In this document: positions 2,796 through 20,594 of the stretch, in pieces
Layout of the letters: the number at the start of each line of letters is the position of its first letter
Numbering within the stretch: the first letter of the stretch is position 1
Notes under the pieces: model-generated
The model's input: the letters and a program-made list of their open reading frames with translations, nothing else
What the model was told of the DNA's origin: nothing
Database searches by the model: none
Virus record (IMG/VR): IMGVR_UViG_2579778956_000004
Coordinates: 1 to 23,861 of that record
Length of the DNA: 23,861 nt
DNA from: a virus
Taxonomy: Duplodnaviria > Heunggongvirae > Uroviricota > Caudoviricetes
Direction: 5' to 3' (one strand)
Program-made: the position numbers and the translations under genes

Positions 2796-3239
2796 TTACA
2801 TAGATGTTTCGTTTAATTCTTCCCGACGAACGCTGTAAACGTCGGTGGCTTTTGCCAGCAGTTCGTCATCATCTGAAAGTTTTTGTGCAATGTATTTGTA
2901 AGCCTTATCCAGTTCGGAGACAGTGCTGTAATTCATCGCTGCGCTGGTATCCGCTACATCACGAAGAAATGCTTCTTCGTCAGCTTTACCTTGTTTCGTC
3001 CGACGATCGAACTTCGGTGAAACAATGAAGCGTTTGTCGAATTCTCCAGGCTCCAGAAGCAGACAGTGCAATGCGGTTCCAATATCCAGTGCAGACTTTT
3101 TCTCTTCGTCTTCTGGTGCTGCCTGGACCCATTTAAGAAGCGCCGGATTCTTGGCAACCATGTCCAGTTGCGACTTACTCACGCCGTCACCGGCGTGGTA
3201 GTCTTCGTTGCTGATGTCGAAATAAATTCCCGGTTTCAT
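2796..3239 (-). CDS. RecE-like / PD-(D/E)XK-family nuclease N-terminal domain protein, probably truncated
   Basis: N-terminus MKPGIYFDISNEDYHAGDGVSKSQLDMVAKNPALLKW...GTALHCLLLEPGEF resembles the N-terminal region of exodeoxyribonuclease-VIII-like prophage nucleases. Only 147 aa, whereas this family is usually about twice as long as I recall it. Confidence 0.45.
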   Translation of the reverse strand: MKPGIYFDISNEDYHAGDGVSKSQLDMVAKNPALLKWVQAAPEDEEKKSALDIGTALHCLLLEPGEFDKRFIVSPKFDRRTKQGKADEEAFLRDVADTSAAMNYSTVSELDKAYKYIAQKLSDDDELLAKATDVYSVRREELNETSM

Positions 3240-3843: not shown

Positions 3844-4428
3844 TTATTGTTTGTTTTTTTCGTTCTGGTTGATGACAAATTCAATGTAACTTTCGATCTT
3901 TGCCTTCTCTGTTTCAGGTAACAATGCGTAGCGCGAGCGGTCATAGTTGATAGTTGCAGGATCATGCGGATGAATCAGTAGTTCATATCCGTGACGCCCG
4001 AATGCAGATGCAACATTCTCCAGGGTGGAAATGGAAACGCTGACCTCATTGTTTAACAGGCGGCTTATTGTCACCTGGGCGACGCCGGATGCGCGGTGAA
4101 GTTTTCCCTGAGTTGAAAGGTCGCGGCTTTCACTCATCCAGCGTTCCAGGTTGTGAGCCGCCAGTTGACCAATGTCGCTTGGTCCGACAGGCTGAAAACC
4201 TTCCTGAGAAAGCGAGCGATCGATATCAAGCCAGTTACGGGGTTTATTGGCGGCAGCTTCAATTTTTCGCGCAACCTGGTCGCCGATAACCTTCTTGCCA
4301 AGAGCCCAGCGGTTTACCAGATTTGCCTGAGTTCCAAGTTTTTCAGCCATCCGCGTCTGAACACCATTGAATTCACGGTCGATCAAGTCGTTGAGATTTT
4401 GCCTGCGGACGTCCTGGATACTTTTCAT
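3844..4428 (-). CDS. Prophage repressor, tandem helix-turn-helix, no S24 peptidase domain
   Basis: 194-aa product with two XRE-like HTH segments (TRMAEKLGTQANLVNRWALGKKVIGDQVARKIE and GKLHRASGVAQVTISRLLNNEVSVSISTLENVASAFG). No Ala-Gly/Ser-Lys autocleavage module is recognisable. Divergent from a Cro-like gene across an operator-rich spacer. Confidence 0.7.
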   Translation of the reverse strand: MKSIQDVRRQNLNDLIDREFNGVQTRMAEKLGTQANLVNRWALGKKVIGDQVARKIEAAANKPRNWLDIDRSLSQEGFQPVGPSDIGQLAAHNLERWMSESRDLSTQGKLHRASGVAQVTISRLLNNEVSVSISTLENVASAFGRHGYELLIHPHDPATINYDRSRYALLPETEKAKIESYIEFVINQNEKNKQ

Positions 4429-4483
4429 TTTCTGGAAAATCGCCTCATATCTGAATCAGAAGATGATTCAATTTAAAGCAATA

Positions 4484-4550
4484 TTACCCAACAGGTAAAT
4501 GCACCTCATGGGTAACTATCCTTGATTTTTGTTACCTTATAGGTGAATAT
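4484..4550. promoter_or_regulatory. Divergent immunity promoter/operator region (OR-like) with three operator-like sites
   Basis: TTACCCAACAGGTAA (4484-4498, perfect), GCACCTCATGGGTAA (4501-4515, half-site degenerate), TTACCTTATAGGTGA (4532-4546, one mismatch). Candidate rightward sigma-70 promoter TTGATT (4522-4527), 17-nt spacer, GAATAT (4545-4550) overlaps the third site. Confidence 0.5.
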
Positions 4551-4582
4551 TTATTATCTGAAATAAATATCAGGCAATAGCT

Positions 4583-4813
4583 ATGAGCGATAACGGACAT
4601 TTCGATTTCAAAAAGCACTGGCTTGCACTTACTCCGGATGAGCGTGAAGCCTTCGCACAGGAAGCCGGAACGACGAGTCACTATATCCAGACTCACTTAA
4701 CAGGTAAGCGCAAAATGCCAGGTAAGGTATTGATGGATGGGCTTTTTAAAGCCTGTAAATCAAGACAATGGCTGCGCTCAAAAGCAGAACTGGCATACTT
4801 CTTCTACTCATGA
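4583..4813 (+). CDS. Cro-like small DNA-binding regulator
   Basis: 76-aa ORF transcribed divergently from the repressor, immediately downstream of the operator cluster. Product MSDNGHFDFKKHWLALTPDEREAFAQEAGTTSHYIQTHLTGKRK... is consistent with Cro/YdaS-like HTH proteins. Confidence 0.55.
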   Translation: MSDNGHFDFKKHWLALTPDEREAFAQEAGTTSHYIQTHLTGKRKMPGKVLMDGLFKACKSRQWLRSKAELAYFFYS

Positions 4814-4883: not shown

Positions 4884-4962
4884 TAAAAACCAAATATGGT
4901 TGATCTTTTTTTTGTGTCAGCACAAAATAACCGTAATCCCAATACTAATAACAGGGCTTACC

Positions 4963-5178: not shown

Positions 5179-5994
5179 ATGAGCAGACATGCAACAGATT
5201 GGGCCTGGGAGACAGATCCAGGTAGCTCGTCATTAAAGCTCATACTGCTCTCGATGGCTGACAGAGCCGATGAATATAACCTCTGCTACCCCAGCATAGA
5301 ACGCCTCGTTAAAGACACTTGCCTGAATAAAAAAACCGTGCAGGCCGGACTTATATCGCTCATGAAAATGGGGCTTATTTCAGATACCGGGGAGAGAAAG
5401 GGAGCGACAAAAAGAGTGCGGGTTTTCTCTCTTAATATAACCAAAAACGGGAACATTAAAGGCAACCGAGAGGGGGGCAATGAACCCGAAAACGGTAATG
5501 TTACCGAAAACGGGAATATACCCAAAAACGGGATGTTGAATGATCCCAAAAACGGGATGTTGAATGATCCCAAAAACGGGATCCAGAACCAGTCATATAA
5601 CCAGTCATTTAACCAAGAGAGGGAGAGCAGGACAAAAAACGGGGATTCTGTGCATCATGACCCCGGCGCAAACAACGCCGTGATGAATAACTTTGTTCCT
5701 CCTGGTGGGTCAGGGCAATTAGGCAAATTTGTCATGCATGAACAATGGCAGCCATCAGATGACTTTCTTCGGAAAAGCTCATTGCAGGGGATCTACCTGG
5801 ACAGTCTGCCAACGGCACAGGAACTTGCAGAGTTCAGAATTTACTGGATGGCTGAGGGTAAGGCATACCATCAGGCACAGTGGGAGCAGAAGCTGGCAAG
5901 GCGGCTGCAGATTAGCAGACAGAAGCAATCAACATTACCTGATAACAACGTTCCGCACTGGAACAGCCCTGAAGCATGGGAGGATTTCTTGTGA
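5179..5994 (+). CDS. Replication initiator, lambda-O-like (N-terminal HTH, repeat-encoded linker, C-terminal domain)
   Basis: SD GGAG before the ATG at 5179. N-terminal LKLILLSMADRADEYNLCYPSIERLVKDTCLNKKTVQAGLISLMKMGLI is HTH-like. The central region is encoded by the iteron repeats. The stop overlaps the next gene start (GTGA at 5991-5994). Confidence 0.7.
   Translation: MSRHATDWAWETDPGSSSLKLILLSMADRADEYNLCYPSIERLVKDTCLNKKTVQAGLISLMKMGLISDTGERKGATKRVRVFSLNITKNGNIKGNREGGNEPENGNVTENGNIPKNGMLNDPKNGMLNDPKNGIQNQSYNQSFNQERESRTKNGDSVHHDPGANNAVMNNFVPPGGSGQLGKFVMHEQWQPSDDFLRKSSLQGIYLDSLPTAQELAEFRIYWMAEGKAYHQAQWEQKLARRLQISRQKQSTLPDNNVPHWNSPEAWEDFL
5441..5645 (+). repeat. Iteron-like direct repeats inside the initiator gene (candidate origin of replication)
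   Basis: Seven copies of an AAAACGG(G/T)A core at about 5443, 5489, 5506, 5524, 5548, 5572 and 5634, including two perfect tandem 24-bp units CCCAAAAACGGGATGTTGAATGAT (5521-5544, 5545-5568). Followed by AACCAGTCAT x2 (5587-5608) in an AT-richer stretch. Confidence 0.6.
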
Positions 5995-8510
5995 ACAACG
6001 TTTTTACCGCGATACAAAACCGTGACGGAGAAGCCCTTTCTCGCATGTCAGGTTATGAGCATCAGTACACCAACAATGACAACGTGGTGAACATGTCAGC
6101 AGAGAGGCTTGTTGATGCCCTTTTCAAACAGCTGAAACAACTGTTTCCGGCGGCAGTGGTAACCAACCTGAAGACGCCAGAGCAGGAAGTTGCTGCAAAA
6201 CAGCAGTGGATTGCTGCGTTTGCCGAAGGTGGGATCCGAACCCGTGAACAGGTTTCTGCTGGTATGCGCCACGCCCGCGCCAGTGAATCTCCGTTCTGGC
6301 CGTCGCCAGGGCAATTCATCAAGTGGTGCAAAGACAGCAAGATGGTTCTTGGCGTCACCATTGACGATGTGATGGCGGAGTTTCACCGGTACAGCAAGGA
6401 AAAAAGTTTATATCCTGGTGGTCCCGAAAGATTCCCGTGGCGGCATCCGGTTATGTACTGGGTCGTATGTGATACCCGCCGTGCAATGTATCAGCGCCAG
6501 CTTAGCGAGATTGAGGTTGAGAAACACGCGCGCAGGCTGCTCGATGATTGGGCGAAAAAGGTGGCTTCCGGACAGCAGATACCCGATCCGGTGATCAGCA
6601 TACAGGCAAAGCCAGAGCCCATGAGTACACCTCCGGACACAGGGAGAGACGTTTACCATCCACCAGGGCGAAGTTTCGGGTGCATGCCTAACGCCGCTAT
6701 TCGCCGTGCAGATAGTAACTACTATCGCGCCGTTACAGCAGGCAAAACAGGTACTTTGCGCCCTTCGCATACAGAAGGCACATCATGGGATGGCTGGGGC
6801 GGATCCGGTGATGATGACACTGGCATTGAGTGGGAATATCTGCACAGTGGTTTTGGCATTGCCCGTATCACTGCTGCAAATGGAACTACTGCAACTGCCG
6901 AGGTGATTTCCTATATCCCTTCGCAGGTAGTTGGCGAGGATAATGCCAGCTATAAATGGGCTAAATATGCCTGGAACAGTGTTAATGGTTATCCTGGCAC
7001 TGTTGTTTATTATCAACAACGTCTTTACTTCGCCGCATCGACTGCGTTCCCTCAGACTATCTGGGCCAGCCGTACTGGGGATTATAAGGATTTTGGCAAA
7101 AGCAATCCTACGCAGGATGACGACAGAATTATCTACACCTATGCCGGGCGTCAGGTTAATGAGATCCGTCACCTGATTGATGTTGGTTCGCTGGTGGCAC
7201 TGACTTCCGGAGGTGAGTACGTCATCACCGGCGACCAGAACAAAGTGTTAACCCCATCATCATTTGCATTCAGCTCTCAGGGATCAAATGGCTCAAGCAA
7301 CGTCCCGCCAATTGCCGTGGCGAATATTGCTTTGTTCGTCCAGGAGAAAGGCAGTGTTGTACGTGATCTGGCCTACTCATTCGATGTTGACGGCTATCAG
7401 GGGAACGACCTGACCATCCTTGCCAATCATCTTTTTCAGAAGCACAGCATTGTTGACTGGTGCTTCTCGATTGTCCCTTACTCCAGCGCCTTCTGCATTC
7501 GTGATGACGGTAAATTGCTGGTGATGACCTATTTGCGTGATCAGCAGGTTTTTGCATGGGCACCACAATCCAGTACCGGGAAATATGAAAGCACATGCAG
7601 TATCAGCGAAGGCAATGAAGATGCGGTGTATTTCGTCGTTAACCGAACCGTTAACGGGCAAACAGTGAGATACATAGAGCGACTGTCCAGCCGTTTATTT
7701 ACCAGCGATGAAGATGCTTTCTTTGTTGATTCTGGCCTTAGCTATGATGGAAGAAATACGTCTGACAGAACGATGACCATCACTGGTGGTTCTGGTGAAT
7801 GGGATTACCGCGCGGAATATACAATCAGTATTTCTGGTGGTGCGTACTTCACCAGTAGTGATGTCGGCGCGCAACTACAGTTCCCTTATGCCGGAACTGA
7901 TCCTGATACTGGCGATGAAGTGTCAAAAGAATTACGTTGCGACATTATTTCTGTAACCAGCAATACCGCTGTAGTGGTTCGTGCTAACAGGAACGTCCCG
8001 CCATCCCTCAGGAATGTGGCCACCACGAACTGGCAGATGGCGCGCCGGACATTTGGCGGCTTGTCTCATCTTGAAGGCCAGACCGTAAACATCCTCTCTG
8101 ATGCGAACGTGGAACCACAGAAAGTGGTTTCCGGAGGTGCCGTCACGCTGGAATCTCCGGGGGCTGTAGTGCACATCGGCCTGCCAATAACTGCTGAATT
8201 CGAAACACTGGATATCAACATTAACGGACAGGAAACGCTGCTGGACAAAAAACAGGTGATCCCGTCCGTTACTCTGGTTGTGAATGCCAGTCGCGGCATC
8301 TGGGCGACTACGCCCGGCGGTAAATGGTACGAATATCCACAGCGTGAATTCGAGTTCTACGATGATCCTGTTGATGACGCTACCGGAAAAGTAGAAGTAA
8401 AACTGGACAGTAACTGGGGCAAAAACGGACGTGTAAGAATCCGTCAGCTTGACCCGTTGCCGCTGTCTGTTCTTGCCGTTATTCCTCGTCTTACTGTTGG
8501 GGGATTCTGA
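5991..8510 (+). CDS. Chimeric ORF: lambda-P-like replication protein N-terminal region continuous with about 600 aa of structural-type (tail-tube-like?) sequence
   Basis: Start assigned to GTG 5991, with SD GGGAGGA 6 nt upstream and coupled to the O-like stop. The first ~215 aa include KQQWIAAFAEGGIRTREQVSAGMRHARASESPFWPSPGQFIKWC, which closely parallels lambda P as I recall it (RQWVLAFRENGITTMEQVNAGMRVARRQNRPFLPSPGQFVAWC). The remainder is a Gly/Ser/Thr-rich sequence with no intervening stop, and its stop overlaps the next gene start. Confidence 0.6.
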   Translation: MNNVFTAIQNRDGEALSRMSGYEHQYTNNDNVVNMSAERLVDALFKQLKQLFPAAVVTNLKTPEQEVAAKQQWIAAFAEGGIRTREQVSAGMRHARASESPFWPSPGQFIKWCKDSKMVLGVTIDDVMAEFHRYSKEKSLYPGGPERFPWRHPVMYWVVCDTRRAMYQRQLSEIEVEKHARRLLDDWAKKVASGQQIPDPVISIQAKPEPMSTPPDTGRDVYHPPGRSFGCMPNAAIRRADSNYYRAVTAGKTGTLRPSHTEGTSWDGWGGSGDDDTGIEWEYLHSGFGIARITAANGTTATAEVISYIPSQVVGEDNASYKWAKYAWNSVNGYPGTVVYYQQRLYFAASTAFPQTIWASRTGDYKDFGKSNPTQDDDRIIYTYAGRQVNEIRHLIDVGSLVALTSGGEYVITGDQNKVLTPSSFAFSSQGSNGSSNVPPIAVANIALFVQEKGSVVRDLAYSFDVDGYQGNDLTILANHLFQKHSIVDWCFSIVPYSSAFCIRDDGKLLVMTYLRDQQVFAWAPQSSTGKYESTCSISEGNEDAVYFVVNRTVNGQTVRYIERLSSRLFTSDEDAFFVDSGLSYDGRNTSDRTMTITGGSGEWDYRAEYTISISGGAYFTSSDVGAQLQFPYAGTDPDTGDEVSKELRCDIISVTSNTAVVVRANRNVPPSLRNVATTNWQMARRTFGGLSHLEGQTVNILSDANVEPQKVVSGGAVTLESPGAVVHIGLPITAEFETLDININGQETLLDKKQVIPSVTLVVNASRGIWATTPGGKWYEYPQREFEFYDDPVDDATGKVEVKLDSNWGKNGRVRIRQLDPLPLSVLAVIPRLTVGGF

Positions 8511-8974
8511 TGATCGATGTTCGAATTATTCCCGCTACCGAAGAGCATCTTCAGATGATTTTGCCGGATGTTCGTCAGGCTGATATTGACGAACTGTATG
8601 CGGTATCACTGATGACTACCGAAGATGCGCTGCGTGTTGGTCTGCGTACTGCGACTATGGCCTGGTCAGGATTTGCGAACGGAGAACTGGTAACCATGTT
8701 TGGCGTATCTCCGGCGTCAATGATCGGTGGCAATGGTACGCCCTGGCTGGTCGGAACCAGCCGTATTGAAAAATATCAGAAGACATTTCTTCGCCACTGC
8801 CGCCCTGTATTGCAGCAGATGCTGGCAGTTTATCCGCGCCTGGAAAACTATGTCGACGAGCGAAACCATGTTGCCAAAGCATGGCTGCACTGGCTTGGAT
8901 TCAGGCTTGAAGAAGCCGCGCCTTATGGTGCACTTGGTCTTAATTTCCACAGATTTCACATGGAGAGCAAATAA
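8510..8974 (+). CDS. Small virion-associated protein, T7 gp13-like by position and size (hypothetical)
   Basis: 154-aa ORF whose ATG overlaps the upstream stop (TGATG). Position and size match the gp13 slot of a T7-like gp12-gp17 series. No motif recognised. Confidence 0.45.
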   Translation: MIDVRIIPATEEHLQMILPDVRQADIDELYAVSLMTTEDALRVGLRTATMAWSGFANGELVTMFGVSPASMIGGNGTPWLVGTSRIEKYQKTFLRHCRPVLQQMLAVYPRLENYVDERNHVAKAWLHWLGFRLEEAAPYGALGLNFHRFHMESK

Positions 8975-9549
8975 TGTGCGATCCGGTTATTGCTGGTGGC
9001 GCAATGCTCGCCATGAGTGGCATTCAGGCATACACCCAGTACCAACAGGGAAAGTATGCCTCGAAGGTTGCAGAAGCGAACGCAGATATAGCCACAGCTC
9101 AGGCAAATGATGCAATAAACAGAGGTAACGCTGAAGCTGAGCAACGGCGCAGAGAGACCCGACAGCGGCTTGGTACACAGGCAGCGACAATGGGGGCTAC
9201 CGGCGCTGATTTATCTACAGGTAACGCGCTGGATATATTTGGTGACACTGCTCAGTTTGGCGCTCTTGATTCGCTAACGACGGTGAATAACGCGCAACGC
9301 GAGGCTTACGGTTATCAGGTTCAGGCTGCCAACTATAAAGCAGAAGCCAGTTCAGCCCGTAAACAGGGGAATGTGGGAGCAGCAACAACTTTACTCACTG
9401 CGCCTCTGAAGGCATACGGTGCGTACCAGATGTTTGGTGGGACGTGGAGTCCGTTCTCTAAAGGAAGTACATCTAGTGGTGGGACGCCAATGTTATCTAA
9501 CTCAGGTTTTATGAATTCTGACTCCCGATTCAAAATAGGAGGTTACTGA
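8974..9549 (+). CDS. Internal virion protein, T7 gp14-like
   Basis: 191 aa, begins MCDPVIAGGAMLAMSGIQAYTQYQQGKYASKVAEANADIATAQ. Ala/Gln-rich with an N-terminal Met-Cys, similar in size and composition to T7 gp14 as recalled. Start overlaps upstream stop (TAATG); SD GGAGAG. Confidence 0.5.
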   Translation: MCDPVIAGGAMLAMSGIQAYTQYQQGKYASKVAEANADIATAQANDAINRGNAEAEQRRRETRQRLGTQAATMGATGADLSTGNALDIFGDTAQFGALDSLTTVNNAQREAYGYQVQAANYKAEASSARKQGNVGAATTLLTAPLKAYGAYQMFGGTWSPFSKGSTSSGGTPMLSNSGFMNSDSRFKIGGY

Positions 9550-12062
9550 TGCCTGTTGTTCCTACTACATCCGGACGCCAGGTTGAGAGCCGTGGAGTTC
9601 AGTCAGCAGGCTTGCAGACGTTTTCTCAGCCAGGTATTGGTGATGCTTTTGTTCGGGCAGGGACAGAGGCAATTGATGTTTTGGGGCAGGCAAAACAGCG
9701 TGCCAATATCGCTCTGGCTCAGGAGGCATCTCTTAACCTCAGTCAGATAAGCAGTGATCTGCTGAATAACCCTGAAACAGGTTTGCTTAACCTGAAAGGG
9801 AAAAATGCTATTGGAAAAGGCCATGAGTATACGCAGCAGTTTGATGCTCAGGTCGAACAACTGGCTATGTCGCTGCCGGATGAACAGGCTCGTAATGCTT
9901 TCATGCAGCAGGCGCAGCAGCAGCGCATTCAGTTCACTACGCAGGCCGGGCGGCACGAGATAGGGCAAATTAATGCCTACGAAGAAGGTCAGTTTCAGGC
10001 GACGCTGCTGAACAATGGTAAAAATGCCGCAGCATTGTATGGCGACAATGCCGCATACGTATTGGCTAATAAGCAAACTTTCCAGCAAATTGAGGAGTAC
10101 GGTGCTGCACATGGCTGGAGCGACGAGCAAATACAGGCCAAGAAAATCGAGTTTAAAGAGAAGGTTGCTGATGCAGCATTGTCCCAGTGGTCGGCAAACA
10201 ATGCGACCGCATTCATCCAAAGTAATGGCGAGTTAAGTGATACTGCTGCTGGAGCTCGCCGTGCTGTAACAGATAGTGGCTCTTCCGAGCGTGTCCGTGG
10301 CATACGCAACAATAACCCCGGAAATCTCGAATATAGCAAAACTAATCCGTGGGTAGGCCAGACCGGTGATGATGGTAGATTTGCTAAATTCGAAACACCT
10401 GAACACGGGATTCGTGCATTAGGGCGGAACCTGATGTCGTATCAGCGGCAGGGTATTGATACCGTCAGCGAGATAATTAATCGCTGGGCACCGCCTACTG
10501 ATAAAAATGACACTATGTCGTATATCAAAGCAGTGTGCGAACAACTTGGCGTTTCTGCTGATGAGCCTCTCGATGCATCAAATCCTGATACCCTGAAGGC
10601 GCTTTGTGCAGCCATTATCCATCATGAGAACGGTAGCCAGCCATACAGTGATCAGCAGTTAACTGCTGGTGTCAGTGCAGCACTTGGTTTATCAACAATT
10701 CCAACCAACACCAAACGCTATACCGGTAATGCAGCATTCGATGCGGCATCTCCTGAGGCTCAGGCAAGTTTTATGCGGCAGGCGGATCAACTGCGTCGGC
10801 AGCAGCAGGCTGAATATAAAACGATGATTGACAGCCAGGTTCGCGATGCGACGGCTGCGTATATGCGTGGCGTTGAATTTCCTAACCCACCTGGTGAGGC
10901 TGATTTTATTGCAGCTTATGGAGTCAGAGAAGGAAACCTGCGATATACCGAGTTTAAGAATACGCAGATCGCCGGACAGTATATAGGCTCTTTCCGCAAC
11001 ATGCCGACAAGCAGCATTACAGCATATGTTGAGCAATTACGCCCGGATACTGGTGAAACAGGGGAGGGGTATGCGGCACGCGCAGCTCTTTATGACAACG
11101 TTGTTTCGGCTGCAAATCAGGTGATAAAGCAGCGGCAGTCGGATCCTGTGCAGTTCTCTCTTGCCTCCGGACAGACAAAGCCTATCGACATGAGCAATAA
11201 GGATAACTTTGGACAGAGCGTTGCCTTGCGTGCCGCTCAGGTCAGTGACCTTGCTAAGTCATATGGCACTCCACTGACGTTCTTTTCCAAAGACGAGGCC
11301 AATCAGATCGGTGTTTTCTTTCGTGATGCTCCAGTTTCCCAACAGGCAGCATATCTCGATACCATCAGGCAGAGCACTGGTGGTGGGCAGGTGTATATGT
11401 CAGCACTACAGCAGATCAGTGCCAACGCTCCATCTGCTGCCGTTGCCGGGATACTGATGGATAAGCCAGGTGGTATTTTGGCAGAAAAAAACTGGTTTAA
11501 TCCGGATGTTTCCGTGTCTCCTGAAACCGCTGCGCAGACAATTCTTGCTGGCGCGGCGGCTCGTAAAGGTACTGATGACGCGAAAGGTATTCCGATGCCT
11601 AAAGATGCTGATCTCCGCCTTGAGTTTTCTGACATGGTGAAGGATGCATTTGCTGGTGATGCTCAGGGGGCATCAATGGCATACGAGATCGCAAAGGACT
11701 ATTACGCTGGTGTGATGGCGAAAAAAGGCGTGGTATCAGGCGAAATTGACAATGATATCTGGAAACAGGCTGTTAACGTAGCTACAGGTGGCGTGCATGA
11801 CTATAACGGAATGGGGAATGTTCTTTTGCCGTGGGGAATGTCTGCAGAGCAATTCGATAAGCAGGTTAATCAGGCTTGGAATGAACAAGTTGTTGGCACA
11901 GGGATAAAAACACCGCCTGGTCAGTATGGTTTGCAAAGTTACGGCGATAGTCAGTACCTGGTGAAACTTGGTACTGGTTATCTGCTAAAAGATGATGGTT
12001 CTCCCGTTGTTCTTGATCTGACACAGAAGCGTCAGAGATTCTCCGGAGATATTCCGCAATGA
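9549..12062 (+). CDS. Large internal virion / ejection protein (T7 gp15/gp16-like) with a possible cell-wall-hydrolase-like segment
   Basis: 837 aa; SD AGGAGG; start overlaps upstream stop (TGATG). Residues ~250-350 contain RGIRNNNPGNLEYSKTNPWVGQTGDDGRFAKFETPEHGIRALGRNLMSY, which looks like a conserved enzymatic module, but I cannot assign the family without a search. Confidence 0.6.
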   Translation: MPVVPTTSGRQVESRGVQSAGLQTFSQPGIGDAFVRAGTEAIDVLGQAKQRANIALAQEASLNLSQISSDLLNNPETGLLNLKGKNAIGKGHEYTQQFDAQVEQLAMSLPDEQARNAFMQQAQQQRIQFTTQAGRHEIGQINAYEEGQFQATLLNNGKNAAALYGDNAAYVLANKQTFQQIEEYGAAHGWSDEQIQAKKIEFKEKVADAALSQWSANNATAFIQSNGELSDTAAGARRAVTDSGSSERVRGIRNNNPGNLEYSKTNPWVGQTGDDGRFAKFETPEHGIRALGRNLMSYQRQGIDTVSEIINRWAPPTDKNDTMSYIKAVCEQLGVSADEPLDASNPDTLKALCAAIIHHENGSQPYSDQQLTAGVSAALGLSTIPTNTKRYTGNAAFDAASPEAQASFMRQADQLRRQQQAEYKTMIDSQVRDATAAYMRGVEFPNPPGEADFIAAYGVREGNLRYTEFKNTQIAGQYIGSFRNMPTSSITAYVEQLRPDTGETGEGYAARAALYDNVVSAANQVIKQRQSDPVQFSLASGQTKPIDMSNKDNFGQSVALRAAQVSDLAKSYGTPLTFFSKDEANQIGVFFRDAPVSQQAAYLDTIRQSTGGGQVYMSALQQISANAPSAAVAGILMDKPGGILAEKNWFNPDVSVSPETAAQTILAGAAARKGTDDAKGIPMPKDADLRLEFSDMVKDAFAGDAQGASMAYEIAKDYYAGVMAKKGVVSGEIDNDIWKQAVNVATGGVHDYNGMGNVLLPWGMSAEQFDKQVNQAWNEQVVGTGIKTPPGQYGLQSYGDSQYLVKLGTGYLLKDDGSPVVLDLTQKRQRFSGDIPQ

Positions 12063-13861
12063 GTTACTTTGGCCTTAATCCAGTAAACCAGAATCAGCAG
12101 CTTGACGAAGCAGCATCAAATCCAGCTGGCTTTAACAGCGATGTTGGTTTTTTCGACAATGCTGTAGGAGCGGCATTGTCTGGTTTGTACTCCGGGCTGG
12201 TGGCAAAGCCAGATCAGTTGCTCTGGGCAGGGATGGATAAAATCGTATCCCCGATTGCTCAGTTTGTTAACGAAAACACCTCGCTCAATGACACTTCAGT
12301 TTCATACGTTGCCGAGCAGAGAAAACTAGCAGAGCAGCAGGTTAAGCGGCTGACGCCTGATGCCGCGACAACCGGAACCGCCGGGCAGGTTCTTTATGGG
12401 TTGTTCGATATGGGCGGGCAGGCTGTTGTCGGTACAACGCTCGGTGGTCCTGTCGGAGGTGCAGCGGCGGTAACTTCGCTACAGGGTTTTTCTGAGTTTG
12501 AACGGCTGACAGCACAGGGTGTTGATTTCAGGACGGCGCAGGAAGCGGGATTAGTGCAGGGCATTACTGCTGGTGCCGGAACACTGATCCCTATGAGCCT
12601 CGGGTTACGTGCTGGTGGTGCGCTGGCGGAAGGTGTGGCGGCTCAGCTTGCGCGGACGGGTGAGAGTTCAGTGCGACGCGCCGCAGCAACAGCAGTACGT
12701 GCAACGCCAGATATTGCCTATGCCGCAGGTACAAATATTGCGTTCGGTATGGCACAGCGTGGGCTTACTGCAAAAACACTTCGTGATGGTGGCTATAGCG
12801 AAATGGCTAACCAGTATGATGTGTTGGATCGACAGGCAATTGCTATTGATGCTGTTCTTGGGGTGGCGTTTGGTGGTGTCGGCAGATTTATTAACTCTCG
12901 CGGCGAGTCTACAAACGCACCAAATTTTTCACCAGTTGATATCGATGCTGCACTGGCGGCGAATGCCGCTCATCATGCTGAAATTGATATTGCGCCCGGC
13001 GTGCCGATCAACGTGCTTTCGCGCAATTCTCACATTCAGGCTCTGCGAAAAGCTATGTCTGATGTTAGCCAGGGGAGACCTGTAGACGTTGCCAGCATTG
13101 TTGAGTCTGCATCTTTCAGTGAAATTCCTGGGCGCAAGAGTCTGCTGTCTCAGGCAGTTAATGAGGCTCTGTCATCTGTAGATGATGGAGTAACGGCGCG
13201 CGCTATAGAAAATCGGTTGCTTGAAGAACAGGCCGCGCAGCTTTTGCCGCGTGGAGATAGACAGGTTTACCAGTCTGAAATCGCTAATAGCCAACGAATT
13301 ATTGAAAATCTCACTGAACAGCGTGCACAAATTCTTGCAGAAGAGCCAACCGGTAGCGGTAAAGCTTTGTCTCGTGCTCGATCAGATAAACAGGCCAGAC
13401 TTCGCGATATTGATCAACGAATCCGGCAGGCACAAGAACGCCTGGAATTTTCCCGTAACGCGTTGGCACCGCACGAGCCTGGCGGTCAGTTTTTTGAAGC
13501 TCGAGCAGAACTGGCTCGGAGACAGCAGGCAGAAAGTGAACTTAATGCTCAGGCTGTTTCATTCTATAAAACAGCAGAGGTCAGGACGCCAGACGAAGTA
13601 GCTCCTTTTGAGCCTGATAAAATATTGCAACAGGCAGAACAAAAAATGATGTCAGATCCGGCAGGAGATATTGATCTGCGCATAGCTGAAGACTCGCTGC
13701 TTGAATCACCTGACATGATAATCACCGTGCTGGATGATGATGGTAATCCACAATCGCGCAGTGCGCGTGAAGTACTGGATGAAGCGAACAGGGAAAGTGA
13801 GCAGGCAATACAGGATTCCAGCCTGTTTGATGTTGCTGTGGCGTGTTTCTTGAGAGGTTAA
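12059..13861 (+). CDS. Large internal virion / ejection protein (Gly/Ala-rich)
   Basis: 600 aa; start overlaps upstream stop (ATGA). The N-terminal half is Gly/Ala-rich and hydrophobic (GTTLGGPVGGAAAVTSLQG...), the C-terminal half charged and coiled-coil-like. Consistent with a core/ejection protein. Confidence 0.55.
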   Translation: MSYFGLNPVNQNQQLDEAASNPAGFNSDVGFFDNAVGAALSGLYSGLVAKPDQLLWAGMDKIVSPIAQFVNENTSLNDTSVSYVAEQRKLAEQQVKRLTPDAATTGTAGQVLYGLFDMGGQAVVGTTLGGPVGGAAAVTSLQGFSEFERLTAQGVDFRTAQEAGLVQGITAGAGTLIPMSLGLRAGGALAEGVAAQLARTGESSVRRAAATAVRATPDIAYAAGTNIAFGMAQRGLTAKTLRDGGYSEMANQYDVLDRQAIAIDAVLGVAFGGVGRFINSRGESTNAPNFSPVDIDAALAANAAHHAEIDIAPGVPINVLSRNSHIQALRKAMSDVSQGRPVDVASIVESASFSEIPGRKSLLSQAVNEALSSVDDGVTARAIENRLLEEQAAQLLPRGDRQVYQSEIANSQRIIENLTEQRAQILAEEPTGSGKALSRARSDKQARLRDIDQRIRQAQERLEFSRNALAPHEPGGQFFEARAELARRQQAESELNAQAVSFYKTAEVRTPDEVAPFEPDKILQQAEQKMMSDPAGDIDLRIAEDSLLESPDMIITVLDDDGNPQSRSAREVLDEANRESEQAIQDSSLFDVAVACFLRG

Positions 13862-13866
13862 ATTAA

Positions 13867-16341
13867 ATGAGACAGGAATGTATACAAGCGGTCCAGCAGG
13901 CGGCGCAGCGCACGTTAACGGAGCGAGAAATACAGAACATTGAAGACCGCATTTATCGAAATATGCGCTCCATTGCTCGTGATGACCCGATGTCGTGGAG
14001 ACAACTTTCCGAATCAGAGCGGCTATATCGAGCAGCACAATTGGCATCTGAAGAATTACAGCGAGAAGCGGCATTAAAGAAACGTCGTGTGGCCCTCACT
14101 ATAGCCGCACGTCAGAGATTGGATAAATTTATCAATAGCTATCAAGGGGCTGATGGGAAACTTGGCGCTCTTAACCGTACTATTGCTTTTAATGCAGACG
14201 GTAAATCGAATTTCCTCTCTGTTGAGTCCAGAACAAAAGCCACTCGTGATTATGCATTGAGTCAATTGCAGGAGGCATTTGAAGCAGTTGATCCTCGCTT
14301 TTTTGGCCTGTTTGAAGATGAAGCTGGCGTACGTGACCTGGTATATGAAATGCGAGGGCAAAATACTGGCAATGCTAAAGCAAGAAAAGGTGCTAAGGCG
14401 TGGAGAGAAGTGACAGATCTACTGCGCCGCCGGTTTAATGATGCTGGTGGGGACATTGGCTATCTCGAAAACTGGGGGATCCCTCAACATCATTCTATGG
14501 AAAAGGTTGGGGCGGTATCAAAGGATAAGTGGGTTAGCGATGTTATAGGTAAGCTGGATCGCAAATATTATATCCGAGCCGATGGACAACTGATGAACGA
14601 TGCCGAGTTGTCTGCATTTCTTGGAGAGGCTTATAACACGATCGCTACAGGTGGGCTGAATAAGCTTACTGATACCGGAATGCGAATTTCCGGCGCACGT
14701 GCTAACCGTGGTAATGCATCACGACAGATACATTTCAAAGATGCAGATTCCTATCTGCAATATCAGCAACTTTATGGCGATCGCTCTCTATGGGAAATCA
14801 TGGTCGGTCACCTTGAAGGTATCAGTAAAGATATTGCACTGGTGGAAACATATGGCCCAAACCCCGATCATGTTTTCCGCTCTCTTCTTGATCAGGTGAA
14901 GGCAGAAACGGCAACAGCTAACCCGAGTAAAACCGGTAAAGTCGAGCGGCTGGCGAACAACACAGAGAATCTGTACAACTTTATTTCCGGAAAGACACAG
15001 CCTGTAGCGAATCCGCACATCGCGCGATGGTCTGACAATATCCGCAACTGGTTGGTTGCCAGCAGACTCGGATCCGCGTTGCTGTCATCGTTCTCTGACC
15101 TTGGAACCATGTATCTGTCTGCGAAGGTTACCAACCTTCCAATGAACCAGTTATTCCGCAACCAGCTTGAAGCTATGGACCCAACGAACCGTACAGAACT
15201 TGCGCGGGCGCGCCGCGCTGGTCTGGCGATGGAATCTCTACTTGGCAGCGTTAACCGCTGGGCGATGGATAATATGGGGCCGTCTGTGTCTCGTTGGGCT
15301 GCAACGGCGGTAATGCGTGCCAGTGGGCTTACAGCATGGTCAGATGCGCACAAGCGCGCCTATGGCGTAACCATGATGGGAAGCCTGGGAGAAGTAGTGT
15401 CACGGACACCAGACCTTCGTAGCCTCGATGATTCTGATTTTCGTATCCTGAAAAGCAAAGGGATTACTGACACAGACTGGAGCGTATGGAAGCTGGCGCA
15501 ACAGGAGGACTGGGGGAACGGCAATAATACGATGCTGACACCGGAAAGCATTATGCGTATCCCTGATTCAGCAGTTAAACATCTTGGTGAGCCTGAACGC
15601 GTGAAATTTGAGGCAACGCGCAAACTGCTCGGTGCCGTAACTGAAGAAGTTGATATGGCTGTTATTACACCGGGAGCACGTGAGCAACTGATAACCGGTT
15701 CTGGTATTCAGCGTGGAACATGGAAAGGTGAATTAACGAGAAGTGTTTTCCTGTTTAAATCGTTCCCTATCTCGGTGGTTATGCGTCACTGGTCACGCGC
15801 TATGGGTATGCCGTCTGCTGGTGGGCGTGCGGCATATATTGCGACGTTTATTGCCAGTACGACCATTCTTGGCGCTTTGTCGCAGCAACTTAACGACCTT
15901 GCGTCTGGTCGTAATCCTCGCGAGATGACAGGAGAAGATGCTGCTAAATTTTGGCTTGGTGCTCTACTGAAAGGTGGTGGTCTTGGCCTTTACGGTGACT
16001 TTTTATTGTCAGATCACACTAGGTACGGAAGCGGCGCGCTGGCGTCGATGCTTGGCCCGGTAGCTGGTCTGGTTGATGACGTAGTGAAGATTGCTCAGGG
16101 CATACCGTTAAATGCTGTGGAAGGGAAGAGTGAGCAGACTGGTGGTGATCTGGTTAAGCTTGGGAAGGGGCTGATGCCAGGTGCAAATCTCTGGTACTTG
16201 AAGGCGGCTCTCGATCACATGATTTTTAACCAGATGCAGGAGTATTTTTCACCAGGCTATTTGCGTAAAATGGAGCAACGTTCGAAGAAAGAGTTTAACC
16301 AGACATACTGGTGGCGACCTCAGGATGTCACTCCGCAATAA
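13867..16341 (+). CDS. Large internal virion / ejection protein
   Basis: 824 aa; SD GAGAGG precedes the ATG at 13867. Last gene of the tightly coupled structural series. No specific motif recognised. Confidence 0.55.
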   Translation: MRQECIQAVQQAAQRTLTEREIQNIEDRIYRNMRSIARDDPMSWRQLSESERLYRAAQLASEELQREAALKKRRVALTIAARQRLDKFINSYQGADGKLGALNRTIAFNADGKSNFLSVESRTKATRDYALSQLQEAFEAVDPRFFGLFEDEAGVRDLVYEMRGQNTGNAKARKGAKAWREVTDLLRRRFNDAGGDIGYLENWGIPQHHSMEKVGAVSKDKWVSDVIGKLDRKYYIRADGQLMNDAELSAFLGEAYNTIATGGLNKLTDTGMRISGARANRGNASRQIHFKDADSYLQYQQLYGDRSLWEIMVGHLEGISKDIALVETYGPNPDHVFRSLLDQVKAETATANPSKTGKVERLANNTENLYNFISGKTQPVANPHIARWSDNIRNWLVASRLGSALLSSFSDLGTMYLSAKVTNLPMNQLFRNQLEAMDPTNRTELARARRAGLAMESLLGSVNRWAMDNMGPSVSRWAATAVMRASGLTAWSDAHKRAYGVTMMGSLGEVVSRTPDLRSLDDSDFRILKSKGITDTDWSVWKLAQQEDWGNGNNTMLTPESIMRIPDSAVKHLGEPERVKFEATRKLLGAVTEEVDMAVITPGAREQLITGSGIQRGTWKGELTRSVFLFKSFPISVVMRHWSRAMGMPSAGGRAAYIATFIASTTILGALSQQLNDLASGRNPREMTGEDAAKFWLGALLKGGGLGLYGDFLLSDHTRYGSGALASMLGPVAGLVDDVVKIAQGIPLNAVEGKSEQTGGDLVKLGKGLMPGANLWYLKAALDHMIFNQMQEYFSPGYLRKMEQRSKKEFNQTYWWRPQDVTPQ

Positions 16342-17317: not shown

Positions 17318-19480
17318 ATGACGGTCTCAACCGAAGTTGACCACAACGAATACACAGGTAACGGCGTTACGACATCGTTTCCGTATACTTTTCGAATTTT
17401 CAGAAAATCAGACCTGGTTGTTCAGGTGTCTGACCTGAACGGGAACATCACAGAGCTGATTCTTGATACTGATTATACAGTTACGGGTGCTGGTGGGTAT
17501 TCTGGTGGCAATGTAATACTGATGTCGGCACTTGCAAACGGATACCAAATTTCCATTTCGCGTGAGTTGCCGGTGACGCAGGAAACCGATCTCCGTAATC
17601 AGGGTAAGTTCTTCGCAGAAGTGCATGAGGATGCTTTTGATAAACTGACTATGCTGATTCAGCAGGTACGCAGCTGGTTAAGTCTGGCCCTCAGAAAGCC
17701 TTCGTTCGTGGCTAACTATTATGATGCTCTTAATAACTACATCAGAAACCTGCGAGATCCTTCACGCCCGCAGGATGCGGCAACTAAAAATTATGTTGAT
17801 AGCGTTGCAGATACAAACCTCAACAAAACACTAAGAACACCGGAAGCTATTCAATCTCTTCCTGATGCGATTTCCAGGGCAAACAAAATTGTTGCTTTTG
17901 ATAGCGCTGGTCAGCCATTTGCAACACTACCCCCATCAGGTAGCGCCACCGATGTGTTAATTGAGCTGGCAAAGCCTACTGGAGCGGGATTATCAGGGTT
18001 CGATAAGTCAGTTGATTACGCCGGTGGTACGGTTGGTAGTGAGCTAAAAAATGTTATATTCGTCAATCCTGATATGTATTCAACATTGCAGGAGGCGATT
18101 GATTATGCAGCATCTTTAACAGGGCTGGAACATTCTCCAAGTAGTGCAGCTGGGCATCCAGACTGGATACAACCAAATACTGTATGCAAAGTTGTCAGAT
18201 TAAATGGAAAGAAATACCCCATAAACACAACATTACATGTTTACGGTGATGTAAGCATAGATGCAGAATTTGGAGGGGTATATCTCACGGATGACTTCAT
18301 AGCAGATTCTTCTGGGTATGCTGTTAAATGCGATAAAGGAACAGGTAATCAATACGCTGGGCACATTAGCAATCTTTTAATTGACGCCCGCGCAAAGACT
18401 GTTAATGGATTTAAAATATCTGATGGTTATGCCAACAAGTTAGATGGCATTTACGTAGCCAACGTTGATGGTCATGGCATTCATATTGCTGGAGGCATGG
18501 GTGTGCACCTCATGAAATTCTATGCTATCAGCGTATTAAAACCTACGAATCCACTTAGTCAGGCACACATCATAGAAGGAAGCGATCACCATATTAGTAT
18601 GGGTGAAGGCAGATATTTCAGATTCGGAACGTGGGTTAGGAATGGTGGAAATAACAGGCTTAATAACGTACATAACTGGGGAATGTATGACGATACAGTG
18701 GCCGACCAAAACTCAAGAATGAAATGTTGCTTTGTTGTACAAAATTCTATAAACAACTCATTTAATCAATGTTTTGCAGATTCACCATCAAAATGGGATT
18801 ACACAAAAACAAATTTAGCTCCTGTTGATGGTTATATTAATGGTGGGATTGGTTTCTTCGTTGATAGTGGCGCTACCGGGAATATATTCTCTCAGTGTCA
18901 AACGTTCGTTAACATGAATGCTTATAATTCTGCCGGTCTCTCAAGTTATACTGCGGCGTTATATCCATTTCTTGTAGGTAGTGCGAATTGTGGATTTTCT
19001 TTATGTGAAAACTCAAACAGCCCAGCATGGGTTGGTAAATGTATAAATCATGTTTCTGGGGTGGCTCAAGAGTTCACAAATGCTGTGGGGACAAAAAATT
19101 TCGTTGGCATAGAAGACGACATGCATGCTAACAGGACTTTTTTCAGAAAAGGAGTTGGTGTTCCAATTATCTCGTATGTTATTAAAACAGAAACAGCAGG
19201 AAGCACTTATGTTGCTGATTTTTCATTGTCTTCTTATATTTCAATAACATGCAACTCTAACATTAGTATATCCGTTGCGACACTCAGTAACCCGCCAATA
19301 GGATATACTGAATGTACACTTTCAGTGTTTTCCGCATCATCAAAACTGATCACCTTTACAGGATCTGTTACGCTTGCGAAAAATACACCATCACTAAATG
19401 AATCCGGAACTCAGGTGTTCCGGATGTCAACTGCTGATGGCGGGGCTACTTGGTATGCGAGACTTGTAGCGAACTATTAA
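17318..19480 (+). CDS. Tailspike / tail fiber with T7-gp17-like N-terminal anchor domain and a distinct C-terminal receptor-binding region
   Basis: 720 aa; SD GGAG. N-terminus EYTGNGVTTSFPYTFRIFRKSDLVVQVSDLNGNITELILDTDYTV follows the conserved pattern of the T7 gp17 N-terminal domain shared by podovirus tailspikes. The C-terminal two-thirds are visibly more AT-rich and Asn/Gly/Ser-rich, consistent with a beta-helical receptor-binding domain. Confidence 0.8.
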   Translation: MTVSTEVDHNEYTGNGVTTSFPYTFRIFRKSDLVVQVSDLNGNITELILDTDYTVTGAGGYSGGNVILMSALANGYQISISRELPVTQETDLRNQGKFFAEVHEDAFDKLTMLIQQVRSWLSLALRKPSFVANYYDALNNYIRNLRDPSRPQDAATKNYVDSVADTNLNKTLRTPEAIQSLPDAISRANKIVAFDSAGQPFATLPPSGSATDVLIELAKPTGAGLSGFDKSVDYAGGTVGSELKNVIFVNPDMYSTLQEAIDYAASLTGLEHSPSSAAGHPDWIQPNTVCKVVRLNGKKYPINTTLHVYGDVSIDAEFGGVYLTDDFIADSSGYAVKCDKGTGNQYAGHISNLLIDARAKTVNGFKISDGYANKLDGIYVANVDGHGIHIAGGMGVHLMKFYAISVLKPTNPLSQAHIIEGSDHHISMGEGRYFRFGTWVRNGGNNRLNNVHNWGMYDDTVADQNSRMKCCFVVQNSINNSFNQCFADSPSKWDYTKTNLAPVDGYINGGIGFFVDSGATGNIFSQCQTFVNMNAYNSAGLSSYTAALYPFLVGSANCGFSLCENSNSPAWVGKCINHVSGVAQEFTNAVGTKNFVGIEDDMHANRTFFRKGVGVPIISYVIKTETAGSTYVADFSLSSYISITCNSNISISVATLSNPPIGYTECTLSVFSASSKLITFTGSVTLAKNTPSLNESGTQVFRMSTADGGATWYARLVANY

Positions 19481-20594
19481 CTTTTGAGTTGAATCTCAAC
19501 TCAATGTTTTTATAGGTTATTAGTGATATTATCACAGTAATCATAAATGTAATTATTGACATAATGAAGTAGGAAAGGATTCCTATTTCATATAGGTTAA
19601 ACCCAATTATTTTAAATACGTATAAAGATAGATATATAATAGCTTGGTGGCTAAGGTATATGCTATAGCTAATCATACCAATCAATACTATGTTGCTGGA
19701 TTGAAGAAACTTAGGCTTAATGTAGCAAATGCTGGAGAATAATATTGTTACTAAAATAAATCTATAAATCCCGTATCCGTCATCTTTTTGATAAATGCAG
19801 GTGAGCAATGTTAATATTGCTGTAATTGATATAATCAACTTCCAAGATTTTTTATCATGGTTTAGTGAATTATCGTAAACAACTTTACCAACCGCACCAC
19901 TAATGAAAAATAAAAACATATCTGTATTTAAATTAGACTTTTCTATAGTATAAATACCAATAATAAACAGTGTTATGGAAATATATTTTTCATTTTTATA
20001 AAAAAGAGATATAGCTACAATTGATATATAGAAAATCCATTCATACGGCAGAGTCCATGATACCACGCCAATACTGTGTATCCATGAGTCTTTGAAGAAA
20101 ATTCCACCGCCAAGAAACCCAAACGCTAATAGCTGAATAAGTGCTTTTCTGTAATCATCAAGACTAGCTCCATCAGACATAAATATTATAAACACTGCCA
20201 TGTTTATCAATGCAAAAAATAAAAACGCAGGTGCTAGTCGTTTTATTCTCTTCATCATAAAATCATCCGCGCTTTTTACATTTTTTATTCTTGATAAAAA
20301 AAGGAACCCGGTAATTGCGAAAAATATCTCCACCCCTAATGAGCCAAAATTATCATATATCGGCATTATTTTATATGGAATGTTTTGGTTTGTTATCCCT
20401 ATCGTAGGTAAGTAGTAAGCAAAATGATTGAAAAAAACCATAATACATGCCACACCCCTAAGACCTTCAAGCCACAAAATATTGTTTTGTGAATTGTTTA
20501 CTATCCCTGATTTCACAGGAATAAGAAATACAAAAAAAATAAAAATTAAGAATGCAATAAGCTGATATACGCTAAAATCATAGAAAAAACTCAT
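19446..20594 (-). CDS. Acyltransferase-3 family membrane protein, O-antigen acetyltransferase-like (lysogenic conversion candidate)
   Basis: 382-aa polytopic membrane protein with LWLEGLRGVACIMVFFNHFAY near the N-terminus, typical of Oac/OafA-type acyltransferases. Strongly AT-rich relative to flanks. SD AGGA precedes the ATG at 20594. The 3' end overlaps the tailspike 3' end by 35 nt. Confidence 0.8.
   Translation of the reverse strand: MSFFYDFSVYQLIAFLIFIFFVFLIPVKSGIVNNSQNNILWLEGLRGVACIMVFFNHFAYYLPTIGITNQNIPYKIMPIYDNFGSLGVEIFFAITGFLFLSRIKNVKSADDFMMKRIKRLAPAFLFFALINMAVFIIFMSDGASLDDYRKALIQLLAFGFLGGGIFFKDSWIHSIGVVSWTLPYEWIFYISIVAISLFYKNEKYISITLFIIGIYTIEKSNLNTDMFLFFISGAVGKVVYDNSLNHDKKSWKLIISITAILTLLTCIYQKDDGYGIYRFILVTILFSSICYIKPKFLQSSNIVLIGMISYSIYLSHQAIIYLSLYVFKIIGFNLYEIGILSYFIMSIITFMITVIISLITYKNIELRFNSKVNSSLQVSHTK
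19484..19511 (+). terminator. Putative rho-independent terminator after the tailspike gene
   Basis: TTGAGTTGA-ATC-TCAACTCAA hairpin (9-bp stem) followed by TGTTTTT, starting 4 nt after the tailspike stop. It lies inside the 3' end of the convergent acyltransferase ORF. Confidence 0.45.

Follow-up and report, generated by a model that had tools for sequence, protein, structure and literature searches.

Within the 23,861-nucleotide (nt) window analyzed here (the whole stretch of DNA, positions 1 to 23,861 of IMG/VR record IMGVR_UViG_2579778956_000004), the interval 8510–16341 is very probably the internal-virion (core/DNA-ejection) gene block of a Uetakevirus. This is a temperate podovirus of the epsilon15/phiV10 type, located next to guaA in Escherichia coli. 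The third gene of the block encodes an 837-amino-acid (aa) protein at the position of T7 gp15. It carries an internal lysin domain of the Enc34 type, in which the catalytically important residues are conserved.

A preliminary description made from the letters alone had placed five translationally coupled genes in this interval. All five open reading frames (ORFs; 154, 191, 837, 600, and 824 aa, plus strand) are present at these positions (Table 1). The junctions are, in order, TGATG, TAATG, and TGATG (1-nt overlaps) and ATGA (4-nt overlap), followed by a 5-nt gap. Judged by its sequence, this overlapping and abutting layout is compatible with translational coupling. The DNA of the block is 97.9–98.3% identical to that of phiV10 and close relatives over 99% of the block length, and each of the five proteins matches a PHROG family (E-values 4e-62 to 0). 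The block is therefore not a chance assembly. The families are, in order, 308, 418, 992, 1145, and 684, and the identical set is found in epsilon15. In phiV10 the corresponding genes p16–p20 are annotated as internal virion protein (two genes), head protein, hypothetical protein, and virion structural protein. An NCBIfam scan of all five proteins gave no match, and a PDB sequence search with the 191-, 600-, and 824-aa proteins returned nothing real.

Table 1. Coordinates of the ejection block, its lysin domain, and the two fusion ORFs (window positions).
Feature	Position (nt)	Strand	Remark
154-aa gp13-type internal virion protein	8510–8974	+	phiV10 p16 / epsilon15 gp13 equivalent
191-aa T7 gp14-family virion core protein	8974–9549	+	Predicted outer-membrane pore component of the ejectosome
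837-aa gp15-position internal virion protein	9549–12062	+	phiV10 p18 / epsilon15 gp15 equivalent
Predicted Enc34-type (PHA02564) peptidoglycan hydrolase domain	10290–10649	+	aa ~248–367 of the 837-aa protein
600-aa protein	12059–13861	+	phiV10 p19 / epsilon15 gp16 equivalent; first part of the T7 gp16 position
824-aa virion structural protein	13867–16341	+	phiV10 p20 / epsilon15 gp17 equivalent; last part of the T7 gp16 position
844-aa fusion ORF	5976–8510	+	N-terminus of lambda-P-type replication protein, C-terminus of tail (nozzle-position) protein
147-aa nuclease::RecT fusion ORF	2796–3239	-	Junction 2948/2949

The block had been read in the preliminary description as the T7 series gp13 to gp16. 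This reading holds for gp13 and gp14 by family membership. For gp15 it is suggested by a structural match together with position and size, and for gp16 no similarity was detected. The T7 proteins have 138, 196, 747, and 1318 aa, compared with 154, 191, 837, and 600 + 824 aa here. In the intact phage the block follows tail genes of the T7 gp11/gp12 type. The 154-aa protein and T7 gp13 match the same family, phrog_308 (E 4e-62 and 1e-42, respectively), both at profile positions 2–150 of 151. The 191-aa protein matches phrog_418 (E 1e-72) and scores 33.7 bits (cut-off 27) on the Pfam model T7_gp14 (PF24072), with aa 1–167 aligned to model positions 1–182 of 187. PGAP labels an identical copy of this protein as 'virion core protein, T7 gp14 family'. 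Its N-terminus is MCDPVIAGGAMLAMSGIQAYTQYQQGK (also quoted as MCDPVIAGGAMLAMSGIQAY...), and that of T7 gp14 is MCWAAAIPIAISGAQAISGQNAQAK (also quoted as MCWAAAIPIAISGAQAISGQ...). The Met-Cys start that had been pointed out earlier is thus common to both. Direct BLASTP of the 191-aa protein against T7 gp14 was not significant, and the same comparison of the other four proteins with their T7 counterparts yielded no significant match either.

Two observations concern these small proteins in the related phages. Conservation of the gp14-type protein between the window, epsilon15, and phiV10 is limited to aa 1–163; its Ser/Gly-rich C-terminal tail (~28 aa) varies among relatives in length and sequence (191, 181, and 180 aa). 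The RefSeq note on epsilon15 gp13 (4123–4587 of the epsilon15 record) cites an HHpred match to a GNAT acetyltransferase (3fbu_A). Should this match be real, an acetyltransferase-like fold would be expected of gp13-type proteins, among them T7 gp13, which shares the PHROG.

The motif RGIRNNNPGNLEYSKTNPWVGQTGDDGRFAKFETPEHGIRALGRNL spans aa 250–295 of the 837-aa protein (nt 10296–10433). It had been suspected to be a catalytic or binding module, possibly muralytic, and this suspicion proved well founded as far as conserved residues can tell. The motif lies in an Enc34-type lysin domain (CDD PHA02564), which matches the solved catalytic domain 7Q47 in both sequence and fold. In the predicted structure the domain has this fold and superposes on the Enc34-type domain at 1.4 Å with 44% identity. 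The residues predicted to be catalytically important are W313 (nt 10485–10487), Y325 (nt 10521–10523), and E360 (nt 10626–10628). They align with W79, Y95, and E131 of Enc34 (W80, Y96, and E132 in chain 7q47_A, the numbering of which is one off from that of the paper, PMC8943055). The PHROGs that match the lysin segment carry the labels endolysin or tail injection transglycosylase. By sequence, the closest solved relative of the domain is chain L of PDB entry 9VVP ('Gp29', residues 3–146; E 4e-38). The PM2 protein P5 also belongs to the Enc34-type family, and 'structural protein P5' is a name given in the original annotation of phiV10. An assignment of 7Q47 to the Pae87 muramidase (PF11860) was rejected; the Pae87 entries are 7Q4S and 7Q4T (PMC8972805), and 7Q47 is the Enc34 endolysin.

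The Enc34 domain (ORF39deltaC) has been shown experimentally to lyse outer-membrane-permeabilised E. coli, P. aeruginosa, and Hafnia and to be muralytic on their sacculi (PMC8943055). Structurally it is all-helical and a permuted relative of the alpha-lobe of lysozyme, with ancestry in common with GH73 and GH23 (Cernooka et al., PMC8943055). Trp79, Tyr95, and Glu131 are its catalytically important residues, and a beta-N-acetylglucosaminidase specificity has been argued for it (PMC8943055). By analogy, the lysin domain of the 837-aa protein probably has this specificity, and E360 would be its catalytic acid.

The position of this domain within the protein was examined across the family. The full-length 837-aa query gave only near-identical E. 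coli copies, and representatives were therefore used for a deep alignment. From 1.84 billion representative proteins, all of which were scanned (50%-representative search), 12,690 relatives emerged, and 93 diverse homologues with a shared N- and C-terminal scaffold were aligned. The signature NNNPGN...ENG is kept in 50 of the 93, and W313/Y325/E360 in about half. The remaining 43 have other sequence at that position. A Pfam scan of 42 of these found SLT in 21, Glyco_hydro_108 in 13, and Transglycosylas in one. Other peptidoglycan-cleaving domains are thus carried on the constant scaffold, which is strong evidence that this position supplies the wall-cutting activity. The swapping of Enc34-type, SLT, and GH108 cassettes on a constant tunnel scaffold is largely borne out by the aligned sequences of the 93 homologues.

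A common E. coli variant of 935 aa (~100 similar proteins) has an extra segment of ~98 aa in the linker that precedes the lysin domain (aa ~242–250). The segment belongs to no Pfam family, and the remainder of the protein is 91–99% identical.

The 837-aa protein matches phrog_992 (E 0), whereas T7 gp15 is in a different family, PHROG 1339. An AlphaFold2 model of the protein has a predicted local distance difference test score (pLDDT) of 90.5, with low confidence at aa 7–42 and 234–244 and a dip at aa 381–390. The model comprises a helical scaffold (aa ~41–232 and ~395–837) and the globular lysin domain between flexible linkers. Because the linkers that flank it are modeled with low confidence, the lysin domain appears to behave as an inserted globular module. 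Foldseek matched the model to two chains of T7 gp15, 7k5c_A and 6yt5_A (E 2e-3, probability 0.97, ~830 columns), with a global template modeling (TM) score of 0.16–0.19. The next match had a probability of only 0.15. A weak collinear motif, GDSxYL, recurs near the C-terminus of gp15-position proteins. Taken together with position and size, the structural match makes homology of the 837-aa protein to T7 gp15 likely but unproven.

The two proteins that follow occupy the position of T7 gp16. The 600-aa protein matches phrog_1145 (function unknown, E 0). Its N-terminal half is rich in Gly/Ala and has one hydrophobic segment (aa ~260–279, hydropathy scan), and its C-terminal half is charged. Searches of Pfam, NCBIfam, and the PDB sequences gave no hit for it. 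The function that we infer for it comes from its position alone. The 824-aa protein matches phrog_684 'virion structural protein' (E 0). A total of 133 phage records contain homologues of it, among them podophages of Vibrio, Pelagibacter, Liberibacter, Pseudomonas, and Burkholderia, and some of these homologues are annotated as 'internal virion protein'. The AlphaFold2 model of this protein is all-helical (pLDDT 79, predicted TM score 0.82), and the protein is a candidate for an inner-membrane or cytoplasmic-end component. Pfam and PHROG searches found no SLT or other muralytic domain in either protein, whereas aa 5–139 of T7 gp16 match transglycosylase PHROGs. Near the C-termini of both the 824-aa protein and T7 gp16, FKSF is followed by a hydrophobic helix; the positions match, although the alignment is not significant. 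The hydropathy scan of the 191- and 824-aa proteins gave no strong transmembrane segment at the threshold used. Their insertion into membranes is therefore extrapolated from T7.

These two proteins can be equated with T7 gp16 only by position. They may represent a split gp16, as position, summed size, and the weak alignment of FKSF plus hydrophobic helix suggest. A joint reading can be put forward tentatively, with a probability somewhat below even: the linker at aa ~235–250 of the 837-aa protein would be a fixed exchange site, and the 600- and 824-aa pair would be the split, lysin-less equivalent of T7 gp16.

For the intact phage, we infer the following course by analogy with T7 (PMC8954989). 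The five products would be packaged in the capsid above the portal as an internal core, the assembly of which the 154-aa gp13-type protein would help. After binding of the tailspike to the O-antigen, the core proteins would be expelled ahead of the DNA. The 191-aa gp14-family protein would form a pore in the outer membrane, and the 837-aa protein would extend the channel across the periplasm. There its Enc34-type glycosidase domain would breach the peptidoglycan locally, and at the inner membrane the conduit would be completed by the 600- and 824-aa proteins. The presence of the five proteins in the virion, the order of ejection, the enzymatic activity of the domain, and what the last two proteins do are predictions; the identity to phiV10, the family memberships, the fold and conserved catalytic residues of the lysin domain, and the deletions are shown directly.

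The copy in the window is defective. The whole window is a Uetakevirus prophage beside guaA and aligns in three pieces, at 100% identity, with the 37.5-kb prophage found in E. coli 2017.15.01CC. The early region contains a P4-type integrase, a RecT/nuclease pair, a repressor, a DnaT/O-like initiator, and a lambda-P homologue. The last two bear out the temperate lambdoid context noted earlier, which is what temperate podoviruses of this type normally have as their early region. Compared with the intact prophage, two deletions have occurred. One, of ~1.3 kb, fuses the start of a PD-(D/E)XK nuclease in frame to the end of RecT. The other, of ~12.3 kb, starts in the gene for replication protein P, ends in the gp12-type tail gene, and took out the terminase, tRNA-Arg, portal, protease, capsid, cement, staple, and adaptor genes. 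It created the 844-aa in-frame P::tail fusion (junction at nt 6695–6699). The N-terminal ~240 aa of this ORF are of the lambda-P type (Pfam Phage_lambda_P at aa 45–205). The C-terminal ~600 aa correspond to epsilon15 gp12 / phiV10 p15 (phrog_15566 and phrog_376 'tail protein', aa 244/321–844), the gene of which directly precedes the ejection block in intact phages. At either deletion junction the microhomology is no more than 2 nt (TA), and a reading frame is kept. A 121-bp probe across the 6695–6699 junction found no contiguous match among 5426 complete E. coli genomes (RefSeq). The ejection block itself is intact and differs from that of the intact prophage by a single substituted base, located in the 824-aa gene. 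Across the 23.9 kb there is just one indel, an A5 run at 4885–4890 (A6 in the intact prophage), which is intergenic, between two small early genes downstream of the repressor. Because the terminase, portal, protease, capsid, and adaptor genes are lost, the locus cannot make virions alone.

Several results weigh against the interpretation of the block as a T7-like ejection series. The 154-aa protein reaches only 13.6 bits (E 0.088) on Pfam PF11090 (Phage_T7_Gp13), below the cut-off of 25. BLASTP of the 837-aa protein against T7 gp15 gives a best E of 0.022. With hhalign, the 93-sequence profile of the 837-aa family has a probability of 0.5% against T7 gp15 alone and 0.2% against a nine-member alignment of the T7 gp15 family assembled from phage records. 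Against T7 gp16, BLASTP of the 600- and 824-aa proteins gives E >1. The 824-aa family has an hhalign probability of 0.2% with T7 gp16, and all its probabilities with T7 gp16 and SP6 gp37 are ≤1.2%. Foldseek found no PDB match to the 824-aa model at E <0.1, only spurious helical transporters. Furthermore, the searchable literature, which does not reach the key epsilon15 papers, yielded no experiments on the 837-aa protein or on phiV10 p18, and the genes are stranded in a defective prophage, where their function may never be exercised. The non-significant profile comparisons and the lack of a fold neighbor for the 824-aa model would fit a likeness to T7 that is positional only beyond gp13 and gp14, with the 837-, 600-, and 824-aa proteins unrelated to gp15 and gp16. 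These could then be disordered core or tail-tube extension proteins in place of a T7-style periplasmic tunnel. The low global TM scores of the gp15 match, the five genes here compared with four in T7, and the different organization of the core in other podophages, such as Peru-2, point the same way. We nevertheless regard this as unlikely. Two independent structures of T7 gp15 are matched over the full length of the model, and the probability drops sharply thereafter. T7 gp15 is known to undergo a drastic conformational change, which lowers TM scores (PMC8954989). The order gp11-gp12-gp13-gp14-X is conserved, with demonstrable homology of gp11, gp13, and gp14, and weak collinear motifs recur in the proteins at the gp15 position (GDSxYL) and in the 824-aa protein and T7 gp16 (FKSF plus hydrophobic helix).

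Two further alternatives concern function. The central domain of the 837-aa protein could be a catalytically dead lysin remnant with a peptidoglycan-binding or structural role, wall penetration being provided by another activity or not needed at all. The activity of the protein is predicted from its sequence, and about half of the family has other sequence at this site, so that the Enc34-type fold is dispensable. Such a remnant is nevertheless highly improbable. W313, Y325, and E360 are all conserved in a domain that superposes closely on the Enc34-type one. The replacements are muralytic catalytic domains (SLT, GH108) and not binding domains, and the motif is 100% conserved in epsilon15 gp15 despite an overall identity of 59%. 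It is somewhat more probable than not that, since the 12.3-kb deletion, the block has been an inert, decaying relic without useful expression or present function. The window has no terminase, portal, protease, capsid, cement, staple, or adaptor genes, the nozzle gene is truncated, and a copy at the same site in another E. coli genome has decayed differently, with frameshifts and an IS3 insertion. However, the five ORFs are intact and only two substitutions separate 17 kb from the intact prophage, so that any decay must be very recent. This possibility concerns the state of the present copy and not its coding content; it is compatible with the assignment of 8510–16341 as an ejection block.

The other copy is that of E. 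coli XPFI_3_2 (NZ_CM146018.1), which lies at the same guaA site and has decayed independently, with a different deletion from P to the connector. It has a frameshifted tail gene, a truncated 824-aa gene, no tailspike, and an IS3 inside the GH19 endolysin. This shows that the prophage decays repeatedly in situ. Downstream of the block, nt 17318–20594 contain a 720-aa tailspike with a conserved N-terminal head-binding part of ~230 aa and a receptor-binding part unlike that of phiV10. The 3' end of the tailspike gene overlaps convergently, by 35 nt, with a 382-aa Acyl_transf_3 gene of the O-antigen acetylase type. The guanine–cytosine content drops to 33–40% across 18–21 kb, which suggests a horizontally swapped module for serotype specificity and conversion.

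The assignment gives a specific, testable name to proteins that the NCBI pipeline leaves as 'hypothetical' or 'head' proteins in thousands of E. coli genomes. The cluster of the 837-aa protein (>4000 member sequences) can be described as an ejection protein with a predicted Enc34-type peptidoglycan glycosidase domain. The family, in which Enc34-type, SLT, and GH108 modules replace one another at a single site, illustrates the shuffling of the wall-piercing enzyme among ejection proteins by podoviruses, and this could guide the mining of virion-associated lysins as antibacterials. Beyond annotation the significance is small, and no new question is opened.

The closest known system is phiV10 (NC_007804), in which p16–p20 are the same five genes with the same order and overlaps (97.9% DNA identity over 99% of the block). 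The flanks are also the same: tail, tailspike N-terminus, O-acetyltransferase-type gene, and lysis cassette. The gp14-type protein has 181 aa in phiV10 and 191 aa here. The tailspikes have 875 and 720 aa, respectively, and differ in the receptor-binding part; the window prophage, in addition, has its two internal deletions. In epsilon15 (NC_004775), gp13–gp17 (154, 180, 842, 634, and 918 aa) are collinear with the block, and protein identity falls along the order (62, 77, 59, 32, and 28%). The pairwise comparison with internal proteins of known phages thus succeeded for epsilon15 (28–77% identity), but not, by sequence or profile, for T7 gp15/gp16 or SP6 gp36/gp37. Epsilon15 differs in its host and in its O-antigen modification genes. 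Its gp15 contains the identical 46-aa motif, and the RefSeq note on it reads 'HHpred: 4anr_A soluble lytic transglycosylase B'. A 2025 epsilon15 paper cites Guichard 2013 for gp15 and gp17/16 as parts of a packaging/injection device. Table 1 of PMC8954989 lists gp11 (229 aa), gp12 (499 aa), and gp13 (708 aa) of 'Epsilon 15' as gp14-, gp15-, and gp16-like. In the epsilon15 record these proteins have 201, 825, and 154 aa, and the sizes in that table resemble those of a P22-like phage. The placement of epsilon15 in the trees of PMC8954989 may therefore rest on the wrong genome.

The arrangement is already known, and its assignment here is correct but ordinary. The finding is not new, because epsilon15 gp15 has the identical motif and the transglycosylase note and because the PHROG labels already read endolysin or tail injection transglycosylase. 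New are only the precise Enc34-type naming and the family-wide picture of cassette exchange.

The likeness to T7 consists of the gene order after gp11/gp12-type tail genes, the gp13 PHROG, the gp14 family, and one virion-borne wall-cutting domain. This domain is in the gp15-position protein here and in gp16 in T7. It is a predicted Enc34-type all-helical glycosidase here and a GH23 lytic transglycosylase in T7. The gp16 position is taken by two genes (600 + 824 aa) instead of one, with no detectable similarity, and the phage, unlike T7, is temperate with lambdoid replication genes. Enc34-type endolysins (7Q47, M4Lys of BSPM4, and PM2 P5) share the catalytic domain family. The Enc34-type enzyme of a lysis cassette is an endolysin with a C-terminal transmembrane anchor, whereas here the domain lies inside a virion protein of 837 aa, and the prophage carries a separate GH19 endolysin in its lysis cassette. 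In 9VVP 'Gp29' (1295 aa, four chains) the domain is N-terminal, as is the wall-cutting domain of T7 gp16; the remainder of Gp29 has no similarity to the window proteins. SP6 gp36 has no detectable sequence similarity to the 837-aa family (hhalign probability 0.1%) and is annotated as 'lysozyme domain-containing protein'. K1E/K1-5 gp35 has been reported to have lysozyme activity (PMC8954989). In these two and in PhiXacm4-11 gp34, the muralytic activity is likewise on the ejection protein at the gp15 position.

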